Source: an uncultured bacterium
Lineage (GTDB): Bacteria > Babelota > Babeliae > Babelales > Vermiphilaceae
Assembly: GCA_963701085.1 (NCBI GenBank)
Contig: OY969561.1
Coordinates: 672,001-736,000, forward strand
Direction: 5' to 3'
Length of the DNA: 64,000 nt
Position numbers: made by a program
Part shown: piece after piece, positions 39,001-45,000 of the stretch
Layout of the letters: each line of letters begins with the position of its first letter
Position numbering within the stretch: position 1 is the stretch's first letter

Positions 39001-42000
39001 GCAGCAGACAATAAAAACAATCACCGAATCTTTGACGCTATCTCAGGCGTTATTACTCAATAACTATTTTTCTGAAAAAATAAAAAAAGAGAAAAAACTT
39101 TATCCCAATCTTCCTGATGGCAGAGTATTTGATTCGCTACCAGAAAAACACACATTTCTTGCTCCAAATCTTAAGCTCAGGAAAAATAAATATCTCCCCA
39201 TTCAAACCATACAACAAGAGGAAAAGAATTTATCTGAAAAGTAATCTTTATCCATGCGCTCATCCTGAACTTGTTGAAGGATTAAAGCGCGCTCGAAGAA
39301 ACCCTTCAACAGGTTCAGGGCGAGCGCGGTTAAATAAAATCAGCAAGTCGCCCGCTATCAAACGCCCCCTGGCGCACAACAACCAACTTTTCCCCAGTAC
39401 AATCAATGATGGTAGACGGCAAAGCATGTGGTGACTGTGTATGCTCATTGACCACAATGGCAGCGACAGAATCTATAATAGAACTATCAACAGCATCTAT
39501 ACTACTTGGAACTGATTCCCCTGTACTATTGGCGCTGGTGGAAAAAAGAGCATCAAATCTTTGCAATAAATCTAACAATCCAGCATGATCGGGCACACGC
39601 AGAGCAATCTTACCCTCTGCTGACTGAGCAGCCTCCAAAACCCCTGTCCTTGCCCGGAAAATCAGAGTAACAGGACCCGGCCAACAAATATCTATAAGTT
39701 TTTCAACTTGAAAAACTTTTTTTTGATCAATTTCAATAAAATCAAAAAGTTTTTGAGGACTTCCAATAAGAATAAGGTATGGCTTTTTTGACCGACTTTT
39801 AATATGATCCAGCTGAGCACGTCCTTTTTCCGATACATCGGCTAGAAGGCCTAAAACAGTATCTCCCTCTGCCAAAACAACCCCTCCACCGCGCAATTCC
39901 TTTTCCAAATAACCTATTGTTTCTGGATTACCCCAGGATAATCTTCTCATTTAAAGCCTTTTTCTTTTGTAAATAATGATACAATGCCCACATTAAAATT
40001 TCTTGTTTGACATTTTTGCATTATGATGTACGATAAGTGGTAAGTCATGTTTTTTGCCTAACTGACTAATTTTTCTTAAAATTATTGGAATTAACCGATA
40101 ACTGGCATATATAACTACTCAATAAAGAATATCAAAGTAATAATAAATAACCATTAGAGGATGGAGAAAATCGATGAAAAATGTAACAAATCAAAAACCA
40201 ACTGCAGCTTCCAAAGCTACAGGCAAGCAACGCAGCTACAATGAAATTATCGACTACTTAGAAACACATTGGTCAGCAAATCGTGCGGATACCACGCTTT
40301 CTGCTCTTAAACAACTCGATAAAGCTCTTGGTTCCCTTTCTCAAAAAGTTCCTACCGTAATAATTGCTGGTACAAATGGCAAAAGCTTAACTGCCCATTT
40401 TACAACACGTCTATTACGAGAAGAAGGATTAACTGTTGGTACATTTTATACCCCGCATATCCTAACCTACAATGAACGTTTCTCTCTTAATAATGAAACC
40501 ATCTCTAATAAAACTCTCACCGATGTTGGTAACGAAGTTATTAACACCGCTGAAGAACTTAACTTAACACTCAATTCATTTGAATTACTCACCATGATGG
40601 CACTTGTACACTTCAAACAAAGTAATGTTGATGTTGCTATTTTAGAAGTTAATGAAAATGGACCATCTGATGCAACCAACATCTGTTCATCAAAAATTGT
40701 AGCTATCACAAGAATTATCGATCCTCAAGCATCTCCAAATGCAAAAAGCACCGATAAGGCATTAATTCAAGAAATATTAAGCATTGTTAAACCAGGTTCA
40801 ATTGTTGTATCTGCAGATCAAAGCAAACTTAATCTTCAAACAATGCAAGAAATTGTTGTAGAAAAAAATGCTGATTGGGCAATGCCTATTCGTAAGCTTG
40901 CTCCACTTGCATACCCATTTGAACAGCTACATGGTCGATGTGCAGCATTAGCAGAACGTATTACATCTATCTATATCAACTCATTTGCTCACAAAGATTC
41001 TGTTCTTCTTGCTAACAGCCTTCTTACTAAGAAAAAAGGCCAACGCGGCAGACCAACATTAGAAGTAAAACGTCAAACAGAACTTAATCCAAAACGCACC
41101 ATAGAACAATTCTGGAAAGAAACATTAAGCACATTGCCGGGACATTTCCAGTTATTGGATAAAGAAAAACCAACAATCCTTTTAGACCCTGCAGCAAATC
41201 TTGATGCATTCAAAAACTTGCTTCTTGGAACAAGACTTCTTCACTACAAGCGTCCACTTAAAGGATTAACTATTATCCTTGGTTGCAACAATGAAGAACT
41301 AGATATTCACGAACTGATTAAATTACTCCGCTACTTCTTCAAAAAAACATCTGGCCAAGTTATTGTATGCCCAGTAGAACCAGTTCCTGGACATAAAGGT
41401 CACAAAGCATGGGATGTTGAAAAAGTAACAAACGATATCAAGAGTTTAAAAATAAAAGCTAAAGCAACAGCAAACTTTACTGAAGCGCTTGAAGCTGCAC
41501 AAAAAACTGTTGATGAACGCCATGGTGTTATTGTAATTACCGGTTCAACATCAATTATATCTGAATACTGGAAGCACAAAGGTCTTAAAAAGCTTTCTAA
41601 CTAAATTTGCCGCACTTAATCCTTTTACCCCAATTTCCACTTCGTTCTCATTGGGGACCCCATCGAAAAGATAATGAAGATGGGGATTAAGCTGATGAGC
41701 GCGATAGATCTAAAAAAAGAATAATTATGATATCAATTGCCCTTGGGTTATTGATTGGAACATTATACGGGCTCTTCTTTGTTACCCAACAAAGGAGAGC
41801 TTTGTCTTTGAGCCAATCTACTTTTGCCCGTCATCTTACCGTTTCAGTAGTGCTATCATTAATACGTTTCATTGTTTTGGCATTGTGTATCGTATATATA
41901 TTGCACTCATCATCAATCAATCTTATACTGATACTAATGTCTTTTATCCTAACATTTTGGTATATCGTACATAACAAAGGGATACGCCACCATGAACGGT

Positions 42001-45000
42001 GCTGAATTAATCGAAACTCGTCAATGGTCTTTTGCTTCACTCATTGGTTATGAAGAACATCCACTGTTCACCGTTAACAGTGAGATAATCATTCACACCT
42101 GGATCATTATGCTCTTTTTAGCATTAGCACTTGCGTGCGTTAGTTTTTTCTTACACCATACAACACTTGGTCGTTTTATTCTGCTCAAATTTGTTTCTTT
42201 TTTTATTGATCTTACCAATCAATCGCTCGGATCATTTAATTTTTCTCATTGTGTTTTTGCTTCATCACTTTTTATTTTTATTGCGCTCTGCAACATCGCA
42301 CCCATCATTCCATGGCTTGAAGAACCAACACGAGATTTAAATACAACTCTTGCTCTTGGCATCATCTCATTTCTCTATGTCCAAGCAGTTTCAATAAAAT
42401 CACGCGGAATTGGCGCATACATAAAAGATTTTTTTAAACCATTTTTTATCATGCTTCCCCTTAATGTTGTGGGAAAATTATCATCTATCATCTCAATATC
42501 TTTCCGTTTATTTGGCAATATATTTGGCGGCGCAATTATCACCAAGCTCTATTTTAGCGCTATCAGCGGGTCAATACTATTTTCGTTTTTGTCTCCCGCT
42601 ATCAATACATTCATTTTAGAATCATTGGGGCTTCTTTCTGGCATGAATTTTTTACTCATTGCTTTTTTTACGCTTTTTGAAGGCCTTTTACAAGCATTTG
42701 TATTTGCCATGCTCACGCTTACTTATATTTCTCTCGGAACGCAAGAAGGCGGCCATTAATTTTAAGGACACTCTATGAATACATCTTCTGAATTTTTACA
42801 TTATGGCGCCATAGCAACTTCAATAGCTCTCAGTTCAATCTCTGTGGGTCTTGGTGAAGGGCTTATCAGTTGGAGTGCTCTCAATGCTATAGATAGACAA
42901 CCTGCAGCTCAAGATGCTGTTATGCGTGTAGCAATCATTGGCATGACTTTGGTAGAAACCGTTGCGATACTAGGACTCCTTGTTTCCATTCTCTTATTAA
43001 TTTACACAAGCACCGCTGCACCTAATATCTTTGCTCATTACAGTGAAATAGGTATCATCGCGGCAATAGGAATAACAGGACTGGCAATTGGATTTGCTTC
43101 CGCACTCCCTGCACAAGCCGCGTGCCATGCTGTTGCACGACAGCCATTTTTTGCTCACCGCATTTCTGGATTCATGCTCATGACACAAGTTGTTATACAA
43201 ACTCCCATGATTTCAGCTTTTCTTGTTTCACTATTTATTCAAGGACAATCAAGCATGACAGAAACGCTCACTGATAGCCTACGTCTTATTGCAAGTGGAT
43301 TGTGTGTTGGTATTGGCAGCATTGGACCTGCAATTGGCTTAAGTACCTTTGGAAAAGCTGCAGTTACCAGTCTTGGTAAGAATACCAAAGCATATGACAA
43401 ATTACTTTCATTTACGTTTATCAGCGAAGCACTCATAGAAACACCCGTTCTCTTTTGTTTATTAATCGCCATCACACTCCTTTTTGTTGTACCTCATAAC
43501 ACAGCAGAAAACAGTATTGATGGTATTATCTATTTATCCGCTGCATTATGCACGGGGCTTGGAACACTGGGAACCGGTATCAGCTCAGGAATAACATCAG
43601 CAGCCGCTTGCACGCAAATTGGCAATAATCCTGACTCATATAATCTCCTTTCCCGCACGAGTATACTTGCACAAAGCTTGATTGAAACCATTGTTCTGTA
43701 CACCGTCATATTATCATTACTCATGATTTTATTCAGATAAAAAATAACAATTATACAACCCAAAGGATTCACATGAAAAAACACATTATCTCAGCAATTG
43801 TCACCATATCACTCACTAATCTTACTACCCATACTATGGACCAAGCATTAGTCTGCAGTGATAGATTTGACAAATTACCCAAGCATGAACTAAATATAAT
43901 TGCATCATTCACCAAAAGACCCGGCAAAGATACATTGCGATGCGTTAATAAAACACTTAATGCAAAAATAATTTCACAAGACGATCTATATGCACGCTAT
44001 GAGAATGCAAAGCTCCACAAAGATCCACGTACAATACAAGCATTATTGGAATATAATACATTTGTCATCCCTAACATGCATCATGTGGACATAGAGGCAT
44101 TCTTGCGCTACAACATATACAAAATACCTAACCTACACTCTGAACTGATTAATGCTATTAAAGACAACAATATCCCATTGGCAATATACTGCTTAAACAG
44201 ACTTCCTAGATTTATGGGGCATTTTCAACACAATTGCATCAATATTGCTACCAGTAACGGTAATATTGATATGGTAAAAATATTATTACCACGCCGTGAT
44301 GATAAGATGCAAAATACTTTAAAGCAAAATCATCATGTTGCAAATGTCGCAGCAAAAAACAAGCGCCCTCTAGACATCGTTAGAGTTTTTGAAGAGATTA
44401 TTTAAAATAAACAATCCCAAATTATCCCATTAAAAGAAGCACCAATTCAAAAAACATGCACTTCAAAACCATTTTATTTCCATTCATTTTCTTGGCAACA
44501 TGCATTCCCCACACATCTTTTGCTATGCATGGTAAAAAACAAATAGCAGAACAAAAAAAACGCATGCAACAGAACTTACAAAAAAAAAGAACTCAAAATG
44601 AATGCAATACAAAGCTACTAAAATTATGCGATATAGATACAACAAACAAAGATCTATCCTTCATACTCAAACTACATGATACTGCAAAAAATCTTCTTGA
44701 TAATGGTGCCGATATAGAAGCACAAACAGTAAATAAATGCACTTCACTATATCTTGCTTGTTCAAACAAAAACTTTCCAATGGTAAAACTACTCATTGCT
44801 TATGGCGCCAATGTAAATACTCAAACTGAAAATGGTTATACTTCCTTGGCAGTTACTGCACAAAAGGGATTTTTTGATATAGTAAACATACTGACCATGG
44901 CACAAGCAAGCCCCAACATTCAAAATTTTAAAGACGGACAAGTACCTTTACATAATGCTTGTAGTGCCGGAGATTTTAATATTGCAAAAAATTTACTTGA

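Follow-up and report, generated by a model that had tools for sequence, protein, structure and literature searches.

The c4 locus

The window, i.e., the whole stretch of 64,000 nucleotides analysed here, belongs to a 1.2-Mb genome of the Dependentiae/TM6 (order Babeliales). On its forward strand the gene for F-type ATP synthase subunit a is followed, after a spacing of 15 nt, by a gene that encodes four fused c-subunit hairpins and that we call c4. The features of the locus are as follows:

41727..42005, + strand: small membrane protein of 92 aa, tentatively AtpI-like; open reading frame sharing 14 nt with the beginning of the subunit a gene
41992..42759, + strand: subunit a (atpB), F-type, 255 aa; Pfam ATP-synt_A, E 3.3e-32
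42764..42768, + strand: putative Shine-Dalgarno-like AAGGA read from the sequence, 6 nt before the c4 ATG and within the 15-nt spacer
42775..43740, + strand: c4, four fused F-type c hairpins, 8 helices, 321 aa; Pfam, NCBIfam and AlphaFold2
42775..43020, + strand: hairpin 1 (H1), aa 1-82; carboxylate E61 (codon 42955-42957), E28 at the Gln32-like position, loop RQP
43021..43263, + strand: hairpin 2 (H2), aa 83-163; Q142 (codon 43198-43200) in place of the carboxylate, loop ARQPF
43264..43503, + strand: hairpin 3 (H3), aa 164-243; carboxylate E222 (codon 43438-43440), ETP motif
43504..43737, + strand: hairpin 4 (H4), aa 244-321; carboxylate E304 (codon 43684-43686), Y309 at E+5

The subunit a gene at this locus gives the only PF00119 match in the whole genome, in agreement with the survey's finding that no second copy exists. 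All NCBIfam equivalog models score the protein under their cut-offs (e.g., 108 vs 227 bits), and it is therefore regarded as divergent; among 58 orthologues the RLFGN stretch, which contains the essential Arg, shows a conservation of at least 95%. In 58 of 59 loci c4 has subunit a directly before it in the same orientation, which extends the gene order previously noted in 30 of 30 loci; the remaining c4 locus starts at the end of its contig, and in L074, one of the 58, the a frame is partial.

The conserved gene before subunit a was absent from the earlier reading. In 47 of the 59 loci a homologue of it stands immediately before a in the same orientation (blastp E <= 1e-3). ATP-synt_I (PF03899) is the commonest Pfam family among these proteins, yet it is matched in 7 of 41 members with a best E of 8.4e-4, and the window's own 92-aa protein gave no match to it; the name AtpI-like is thus used tentatively. 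AtpI proteins aid c-ring assembly in Na+ F-ATPases. No genes for c, b', b or delta were found in the c4 flanks in any of the 59 loci.

Architecture and predicted structure of c4

The c4 gene is at the moment annotated simply as "ATP synthase F0 subunit C". Pfam ATP-synt_C (PF00137) matches the protein over four stretches (E 1.1e-33, 115.7 bits vs a cut-off of 24), one more than the three that were first counted, and the NCBIfam model NF009998 for F0F1 subunit C is passed with 118.4 vs 116 bits. The AlphaFold2 model likewise has 8 helices arranged in four hairpins (pLDDT 96.8, pTM 0.93), so that the description of the 321 aa as four fused F-type c hairpins stands. The ion-binding Glu in the middle of the C-terminal helix is present in H1, H3 and H4 (E61, E222 and E304) and absent from H2, where Gln142 is found; re-reading the sequence gave the same four residues as before. 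The two halves of c4 can indeed be aligned with each other (25.7% identity over 144 columns), but with an E of 1.35e-9 instead of the 1.6e-6 given originally. Assignment of c4 to the V/A-type proteolipids is not supported: the NCBIfam V-type K models all remain below their cut-offs (63.2 vs 188, 54.7 vs 211 and 42.4 vs 127 bits), and the partner genes found, in searches that did not extend to V/A-type genes, belong to the F type (a, b, delta, gamma and epsilon).

Acetobacterium woodii c1 (4bem_J) is both the best PDB sequence relative of c4, as already reported, and its best natural structural match (Foldseek E 8.7e-5); the E of 1.2e-24 attached earlier to the sequence relationship was not recovered, a single-sequence query giving 2.4e-9. 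In the VIA comparison 4bem_J aligns with 157 residues on c4 163-321 (Z 15.3, rmsd 2.0 A). V-ATPase c chains align with 147-151 residues of the same region (e.g., Z 13.6; rmsd 1.8-2.1 A), and 2bl2_A with 155 residues on c4 82-321 (Z 12.8, rmsd 3.0 A). Among the structural matches no solved chain covers more than two c4 hairpins.

When c4 was modelled together with gamma and epsilon, the predicted complex scored 0.58 against 0.35 for the best of three controls and was graded as weak support. Of 157 solved complexes 116 attain the mark applied, as do 2 of 215 mismatched pairs, and the passing scores of 0.60 or less comprise 18 of the 157 solved complexes and both of these mismatches. The runs agreed in at least 97% of contacts with a partner pLDDT of at least 83, the score being one for the whole complex without interface contacts. 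Similar complexes have already been solved, so that the pass may reflect memory.

Conservation of c4 across the phylum

The survey had reported c4 in 151 of 151 phylum genomes at E <= 1e-10. In the present sampling all 201 Dependentiae/TM6 genomes, spanning 120 genera, gave a match at E <= 1e-5, with full-length orthologues down to 28% identity. Orthologue length is 312-326 aa (n=59), and 152 clusters of the representative library match c4 at E <= 1e-30; the 249 clusters quoted earlier came from another library.

At the key position the 59 orthologues have E58/D1 in H1, Q49/E7/M2/G1 in H2, E57/Q1/G1 in H3 and E32/D27 in H4, the same trend as previously seen in 30. In a set of 127 representatives, a carboxylate is retained by 127 (E or D), 121 and 122 members in H1, H3 and H4, respectively. 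H1 has E123/D4 at this site, Q96/E9 at the Gln32-like position and T97/S13 at E+1, its loop keeping Q in 123 and P in 107 members. H3 is characterized by E121 followed by T101 (E+1), P110 (E+2) and F108 (E+5), and H4 by D76/E46, T83/S24 (E+1) and Y110 (E+5), being the only c4 hairpin that retains the Tyr. The key position of H2 is Q96/E23. Three carboxylates out of four is the usual pattern (99/127), while all four are kept in 21 of the 127, and the silent H2 site is thus dispensable for the c4 family.

In overall conservation H2 does not fall behind the other hairpins (0.50 vs 0.44-0.53). Its cytoplasmic loop (R in 120, Q in 113 and P in all 127 representatives) is the most conserved segment of c4, with a mean top-residue frequency of 0.77, and contains P124, the sole invariant column among the 127 representatives. 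In the hairpin tree H1, H2, H3 and canonical c were each recovered as monophyletic (SH-aLRT 96-99), as had been described. Judged from these sequences, purifying selection is acting on each c4 hairpin. That the most conserved loop (RQP) lies on the silent hairpin hints at docking of the central stalk.

The canonical c subunit and the coupling ion

Five PF00137 matches were found in the genome. Four of them fall within c4, and the fifth is in an 89-aa frame containing the normal c subunit of 84 aa. The gene for this subunit lies 380 kb from c4 and is grouped with b'-b-delta-alpha, c4 being grouped with a. Coexistence of the two c types, noted before in 41 of 41 genomes, is borne out in the larger sample: 189 of the 201 genomes gave two or more matches in the c4 search, and out of the 12 with a single match the five that were re-searched with PF00137 all had the short c.

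According to the available part of PMC2359735, the Na+ ligands of the c ring are Gln32, Glu65, Ser66, Thr67 and Tyr70; one hairpin provides the Glu and Gln, and the hairpin before it provides Ser66, Val63 and Tyr70. At the Gln32, Glu65, Ser66, Thr67 and Tyr70 positions of that description, the canonical c of 120 relatives has Q118, E120, S/T120, S106 and Y120, and the c subunit of this genome carries the complete set. None of the four c4 hairpins is complete, in line with the partial ligand sets already ascribed to them: among the 127 representatives the Tyr is missing from H1 to H3, Pro occupies the Thr67-like position of H2 and of H3 in 110 of 127 members each, and in H1 this position is non-polar in most members. 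The full Na+ set of the canonical c and the highly conserved loop of the silent hairpin are both additions to the earlier reading. The full ligand set of the canonical c makes Na+ the probable coupling ion, H+ being a possible alternative. A Na+/alanine symporter family gene is present in six of six genomes of the genus.

The enzyme as a probable ATP-driven pump

The genome encodes one each of a, alpha, beta, gamma, delta and epsilon of the F1Fo enzyme, two TLC ATP/ADP translocases and a membrane pyrophosphatase as a second possible pump. Searches with four Pfam families (PF00361, PF02508, PF01654 and PF00115) gave no match in this genome and thus revealed no complex I/Mrp, Rnf/Nqr, cytochrome bd or COX1. 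In 21 genomes of the family the respiratory Pfam families were matched in 2, 0 and 1 genomes, and over the cut-off in 1, 0 and 0. The epsilon subunit of this genome has 85 aa, and its length across 29 genomes is 78-85 aa, the C-terminal domain being missing. With translocases present, respiratory genes not found and epsilon devoid of its C-terminal domain, an ATP-driven ion pump is plausible. The setting proposed earlier, an enzyme that hydrolyses imported ATP, fits these observations, and the part of the TM6 study available likewise describes TM6 as having no electron transport chain and an ATP synthase that may hydrolyse ATP (Yeoh et al., PMC4776705).

Proposed composition of the rotor

We consider it somewhat probable (roughly 0.55) that c4 and the canonical c form one heteromeric c-ring that turns against the sole subunit a and works mainly as an ATP-driven pump. 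In the one F1Fo ATPase that these ATP-importing parasites possess, c4 would act as a rotor proteolipid and would join copies of the 84-aa c, the ring being an enlarged version of the A. woodii c1 + c2/3 hybrid rotor and the enzyme running chiefly as an ATP-driven ion pump. Each c4 would supply three carboxylate sites with reduced ligands, to which H2 would add a silent one in most lineages. Its outer edges, with Gln/Glu and Glu on H1 and Thr/Ser and Tyr on H4, could complete Na+-type sites with a neighbour, and the foot of gamma and the short epsilon may find a fixed docking place on the RQP loops of H1 and H2. As three of the four c4 sites are kept, the change in the ion:ATP ratio ("re-gearing") would be modest, unless c4 dominates the ring.

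Against a hybrid ring it may be said that the c genes are 380 kb apart and that Na+-type sites mixed with ligand-poor ones might not turn smoothly on one ion. We know of no precedent for a ring with such a mixture. A ring of c4 only fits the data equally well.

A more elaborate form of the hybrid ring, possible but doubtful, is an 'indexed' asymmetric rotor, in which one or a few c4 arcs would stand among Na+-type c subunits and the RQP loops of H1 and H2 would fix gamma and the domain-less epsilon angularly. The arc would also bear the silent site and two ligand-poor, H+-like sites, and in every turn the ring would thus lead sites of mixed chemistry, possibly with mixed ions, through one a channel.

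Alternatively, one stator could serve two rotors, a c4-only ring and a homomeric Na+ ring of the 84-aa c, depending on life stage or condition. Three c4 copies, for example, would give 12 hairpins, 9 carboxylates and 3 ions per ATP, matching the three-fold F1. Such a division would suit the separate transcription units, c4 with a and c with b'-b-delta-alpha, and where two c4 meet, a near-full site would be completed by Thr/Ser and Tyr on the H4 edge of one and Gln/Glu and Glu on the H1 edge of the other. Natural single-chain c proteins of 5 and 12 hairpins, found in metagenomes as the survey had indicated for multi-hairpin forms in general, point in the same direction. Nevertheless, two rotors appear unlikely, as there is a single subunit a and a single F1 set, both c genes are retained in every genome examined, the literature searched gave no precedent for ring swapping on one stator, and a promoter search for a signal separating c4 from c yielded chance-level matches only.

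Very improbable is a role of c4 outside the ring, be it as a scaffold or template that sets ring size together with the AtpI-like protein, as a stator-side partner of a, or as a separate ion conductor. Its neighbours are the AtpI-like gene and a, not the other c gene, and the constant four-hairpin length could serve as a ruler; a mere scaffold, however, needs none of the three carboxylates that nearly all members keep precisely where c subunits have theirs, the nearest relatives in sequence and structure are ring subunits, and the predicted contact with gamma and epsilon reached the mark, if weakly. An artefact or decaying gene (mis-assembled tandem c array or pseudogene), of which no sign was seen, can be dismissed, given one stop-free frame, a single-contig genome, full-length orthologues in 201 of 201 genomes and hairpin classes that are separately conserved and monophyletic.

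Significance

To our knowledge hybrid F-type rotors are known essentially from one model, A. woodii. Here a larger, four-hairpin version, in which three sites are live and one is silent, is fixed throughout the sampled genomes of one phylum, the enzyme of which very likely works backwards as a pump. It offers a natural experiment on the way in which hairpin fusion determines the size of the ring and its ion-to-ATP ratio, on whether sites that differ in ligand chemistry can share one ring, and on whether the central stalk needs, or can use, a specific docking arc. The annotation of the gene is corrected to a four-hairpin fusion, and the 5- and 12-hairpin chains point to unexplored F-like c proteins in metagenomes.

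Comparison with known systems

In the literature searched no description was found of a four-hairpin fused c for an F-type enzyme, and the available parts of PMC9171764 and 10.64898/2026.10.01.756066 mention neither a four-hairpin c nor an F-type case beyond A. woodii. The same parts describe archaeal c subunits with 1, 2, 3 or 13 hairpins, including the single-gene ring of Methanopyrus kandleri; these share with c4 the natural fusion of hairpins but, unlike it, belong to A-type enzymes. Fusobacterium nucleatum has a Na+ c subunit with two carboxylates, as far as described in the available part of PMC3692424, and H1 of the window's c4 resembles it in having E28 at the Gln32-like position in addition to E61. 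In c4, however, Glu occupies this position in 9 of 127 members only and Gln in 96, and H1 has no Tyr.

The V/A proteolipids (Enterococcus hirae K, PDB 2BL2; V-ATPase c, c' and c'') likewise consist of fused hairpins, not all of which hold an ion site. In these proteins one site in two is lost, whereas c4 has four hairpins with one site in four lost. A lower ion-to-ATP ratio is considered to suit pumps (PMC9171764, in the part available).

The rotor of A. woodii consists of c1, with two hairpins and one Na+ site, and nine c2/3 (PDB 4BEM; available part of PMC9171764). Both systems are F-type and have a multi-hairpin c with Gln replacing one carboxylate beside a single-hairpin c with Na+ ligands, and the E-then-Q pattern of c1 is repeated in the first half of c4. 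In A. woodii, too, the multi-hairpin c gene reportedly follows atpB directly, and the fused and single c genes are said to be adjacent in one atp operon. Here c4 and c are 380 kb apart. Unlike c1, c4 has four hairpins and three carboxylates instead of two and one, is not of the two-hairpin 16-kDa V-like form, and has the full Na+ set in none of its hairpins. Finally, A. woodii is an ATP-making acetogen, whereas c4 is fixed across a phylum of ATP-importing parasites.

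Gene order and surroundings of c4

The host, a member of Dependentiae (TM6), has a genome in a single contig of 1,198,634 bp, and open reading frames in the window show three tightly packed genes on the + strand, the last of which encodes c4, a protein of four fused F-type c-subunit hairpins (H1 to H4):

41727-42005, + strand: 92-aa hydrophobic ORF, AtpI-like, 14-nt overlap with subunit a
41992-42759, + strand: subunit a, 255 aa (Pfam ATP-synt_A, E 3.3e-32)
between a and c4, + strand: spacer of 15 nt containing AAGGA
42775-43740, + strand: c4, 321 aa (Pfam ATP-synt_C, E 1.1e-33, four matched stretches)

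"AtpI-like" is a weak label, because even the family most often matched by members of the 92-aa ORF group, PF03899 (ATP-synt_I), is found in only 7 of 41 members, with a best E of 8.4e-4. A scan of 41400-44000 for promoters and terminators stayed at chance level (7 promoter-like sites vs 8.6 expected). Eukaryote-like repeat proteins are encoded on both sides of the locus (33784-39244 and 43773-46117): two WD40 paralogues at 33784-37256, then a 624-aa ORF with no Pfam match, and two ankyrin-repeat proteins directly 3' of c4.

Architecture and predicted fold

The best NCBIfam model for c4 is the F0F1 subunit C equivalog (118.4 bits vs a cut-off of 116), and the V-type K models of NCBIfam score it far under their cut-offs. 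When c4 is cut in four, its hairpins can be aligned among themselves and to the normal c subunit of the genome, a separate 84-aa single-hairpin protein, which places E61, Q142, E222 and E304 at the key position of hairpins 1 to 4, respectively. The two halves of c4 also align (E 1.35e-9).

AlphaFold2, run on a 127-row alignment, predicted eight helices forming four hairpins (pLDDT 96.8, pTM 0.93). This alignment, which also supplies the representatives discussed below, comprises the window protein and 126 of the 150 listed library representatives; 19 shorter and four longer ones and the library protein P0278 were left out. Among natural structures, c1 of A. woodii, with its two hairpins, matches best (Foldseek E 8.7e-5; VIA Z 15.3 and rmsd 2.0 A, with 157 aligned residues against c4 163-321), and the V-type proteolipids come next. 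In the structure search no solved natural chain extended beyond two hairpins of c4, and the whole-length matches, solely designed helical repeat proteins, are taken as generic.

Conservation of c4 and its neighborhood

The c4 query matched all 201 sampled phylum genomes (a single order, with 120 genera and 20 family codes) at E <= 1e-5, nearly always over the full length and in open frames of approximately 315-350 aa. At least two matches were obtained in 189 of the 201, and in all five of the 12 single-match genomes that were re-searched with PF00137 a frame of 85-104 aa encodes a short c. Among the five genomes that diverge most, four carry full-length c4 at 28-35% identity and one has the gene cut by the contig end. 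Gene order was compared in 59 loci, comprising the 30 best matches, nine divergent ones and 20 picked across families: subunit a lies directly upstream of c4 on the same strand in 58, and the 59th starts at a contig end. The survey's finding of a four-hairpin c protein encoded after subunit a is borne out, far beyond chance. A homologue of the 92-aa ORF is found upstream of a in 47 of the loci. At one locus (L074, G127:C3:193100-199100) the a frame upstream of c4 is partial, 196 aa long and matching residues 122-251 of the a subunit in the window, and may reflect a frameshift or an assembly error.

A search of 1.84 billion library representatives with c4 retrieved 541 proteins at E <= 1e-3, a number that falls to 282 at E <= 1e-10 and to 152 at E <= 1e-30; among the 150 matches listed, 126 are 300-329 aa long, 20 are shorter and four longer. 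The search for shorter relatives yielded 17 proteins of 75-163 aa (60-87% identity) and no two-hairpin relative of c4. Rather than true short forms, the 17 are read as c4 fragments, those with contig data being mostly on contigs of less than 1.3 kb.

The remaining F1Fo genes

Other subunits of the enzyme are encoded elsewhere on the contig (contig positions):

1093.8-1097.0 kb, - strand: normal c, 143-aa ORF, 165-aa ORF, delta and alpha, a cluster headed by c
98.1-98.9 kb: gamma, separate locus
1168.0-1169.8 kb: beta-epsilon, separate locus
1169539-1169793: epsilon, 85 aa

The genome has one match to PF00119, one gamma and one epsilon, and alpha, beta and delta are present; a third ATP-synt_ab match, in a 537-aa frame, is read from its sequence as a putative Rho. 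The 143-aa and 165-aa ORFs have no Pfam match, and b' and b are names by position only. There is no single atp operon, the genes being distributed over four loci (AtpI-like/a/c4; c-b'-b-delta-alpha; gamma; beta-epsilon). As a single subunit set is found at these scattered sites, one F1Fo is encoded at four loci, with two kinds of c gene. In all 59 loci the flanks of c4 lack genes for c, b', b and delta, which makes the division into separate loci an old one.

Epsilon is 78-85 aa long in 29 Babeliales genomes (loci L108-L137) and the epsilon query matched it in 35 of 41 genomes. It consists of the beta-sandwich domain only, without the C-terminal helical domain. In bacterial enzymes the C-terminal helices of epsilon inhibit hydrolysis.

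Energy setting and direction of work

Two genes for TLC ATP/ADP translocases are found in the genome. Searches of it for PF00361 (complex I/Mrp), PF02508 (Rnf/Nqr), PF01654 (cytochrome bd) and PF00115 (COX1) came back without a match. Among 21 genomes of the family, this one included, PF00361, PF02508 and PF01654 were matched in 2, 0 and 1, and over the cut-off in 1, 0 and 0, respectively; the sole match over the cut-off (PF00361) is in a 66%-complete genome. The survey had placed c4 as a probable part of a re-geared rotor of an enzyme that hydrolyses imported ATP, an interpretation that is partly supported. Considering the TLC genes, the short epsilon, the missing respiratory matches and subunit a upstream, c4 very probably serves as a rotor proteolipid in an F-ATPase that works in pump mode, and any gearing effect would be a further step.

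A membrane-bound pyrophosphatase (PF03030, E 9e-249) is encoded at C1:1077762-1079678. In the accessible part of Yeoh et al. (PMC4776705), TM6 genomes are described as being without a TCA cycle and without an electron transport chain, the ATP synthase and pyrophosphatase are suggested to maintain a gradient, and an unusual c subunit is not mentioned. A gene of the Na+/alanine symporter family is present in all six genomes of the genus (here at C1:1073113-1074276), while this genome and two of the other five encode a cation/H+ exchanger; both are possible Na+ users. The pyrophosphatase and symporter genes are less than 5 kb apart and approximately 15 kb from the c-b'-b-delta-alpha cluster.

Hairpin 2 and stalk docking

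H2, the silent hairpin, is as conserved as the other hairpins (mean top-residue frequency 0.50 vs 0.44-0.53) and is not decaying. Conservation along c4 peaks in the cytoplasmic loop of H2 (0.77), with Arg in 120, Gln in 113 and Pro in all 127 representatives, P124 being the sole invariant column. The H1 loop keeps QP (Q in 123/127, P in 107/127), and H3, H4 and normal c (GKYPE) carry loops other than RQP.

In bacterial c subunits, gamma and epsilon make contact with the RQP loop, and c4 was therefore chosen together with these two for complex prediction. With each protein entered as an alignment, the score was 0.58 vs 0.35 for the best of three controls, "weak support" in the verdict of the tool. 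Of 157 solved complexes 116 reach its mark, as do 2 of 215 mismatched pairs; at 0.60 or under, it is reached by just 18 of the 157 and both passing mismatches. The prediction runs share at least 97% of contacts, with partner pLDDT of at least 83. The pass may reflect likeness, since complexes of this kind have already been solved. We infer that the RQP loops of c4 could serve as the docking contact for gamma and epsilon.

Ion-binding sites and ring composition

The 59 genome orthologues carry, at the key position, E58/D1 in H1, Q49/E7/M2/G1 in H2, E57/Q1/G1 in H3 and E32/D27 in H4 (residue followed by count). The commonest patterns among the 127 representatives are EQED (65), EQEE (22, that of the window protein) and EEEE (18); 99 carry three carboxylates per c4, 21 carry four and seven carry two or fewer.

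The Na+ ligands of Ilyobacter tartaricus c are Gln32, Glu65, Ser/Thr66 and Thr67, with Tyr70 stabilising (Mulkidjanian et al., PMC2359735). At these positions, 120 listed relatives of normal c (67-99% identity) have Q118, E120, S86/T34, S106 and Y120, and by this ligand criterion normal c is predicted to bind Na+. No c4 hairpin has the full set in the 127 representatives: H1 has Q96/E9, E123/D4 and T97/S13 and no Tyr; H2 has Ser, Gln, Thr and Pro; H3 has L71/Q28, Glu, Thr, Pro and Phe; and H4 has Ser, D76/E46 and Thr/Ser, with Tyr in 110. Judged from these residues, the three internal sites of c4 would be silent (H2) or ligand-poor (H3 and H4).

The same paper assigns Glu65 and Gln32 to one hairpin and Ser66, Val63 and Tyr70 to the neighboring one, and in the fused K subunit of E. 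hirae it places the neighbor's ligands in the preceding hairpin (PMC2359735). By analogy, the neighbor that comes before c4 in the ring would complete the H1 site, and H4 would do the same for the site of the neighbor that comes after. At the outer edges of c4, H1 keeps the Gln/Glu + Glu side and H4 alone among the hairpins keeps the Tyr, and thus both edges stay compatible with Na+-type neighbors. This pattern fits a hybrid ring, and equally a c4-c4 contact; a ring made of c4 only is a live rival. Most likely, c4 and the Na+-type normal c share a hybrid ring.

Origin of the fusion

H1, H2, H3 and normal c each form a monophyletic group (SH-aLRT 96, 97, 97 and 99, respectively), and H4 requires two changes on the tree of 182 rows and forms a single clade on that of 74 rows. 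The hairpin classes being separately grouped, the fusion predates the sampled radiation. On the free tree H3 groups with H4 (SH-aLRT 88). AU tests reject none of H1+H3 (p 0.669), H2+H4 (p 0.668) and H3+H4 (p 0.674), so that several orders of duplication would fit. The trees were built without single-hairpin c of another phylum as outgroup, the 120 listed relatives of normal c being 67-99% identical to it. One relative of normal c, P0366 (82 aa, 77% identity), carries the source label "Candidatus Limnocylindria bacterium" (Chloroflexota), which may be due to a mis-binned contig or transfer.

Comparison with known rotors

In the accessible part of a 2026 preprint on rotary ATPase evolution (10.64898/2026.10.01.756066), c subunits with two and four helices are typical, A. 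woodii has a mixed ring, and Dependentiae do not occur. Archaeal c subunits have 1, 2, 3 or 13 hairpins (Litty and Muller, PMC9171764). For A. woodii, expression of the genes in E. coli deleted for atp is described in that paper. The open-access literature searched, supplements apart, contained neither a four-hairpin F-type c nor a description of a Dependentiae c subunit. On the ATP synthase of Babeliales it held Yeoh et al. alone, for Chromulinavorax a single paper on another matter, and among the papers listed on proteolipids with eight transmembrane helices and gene duplication none that bears on c4. Other natural multi-hairpin F-like c proteins were seen in metagenomes (P0228, P0256, P0247 and P0283): two have five hairpins (411 and 406 aa) with Glu in hairpin 1 only and Gln in hairpins 2 to 5, one has five hairpins with all Glu (434 aa), and one has approximately twelve, all with Glu (968 aa; a cluster of 12 members on contigs of up to 155 kb). 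Within the literature searched, the four-hairpin c4 is a new form, and the kinds to which it belongs, hybrid rotors of the A. woodii type and multi-hairpin proteolipids, are already known.
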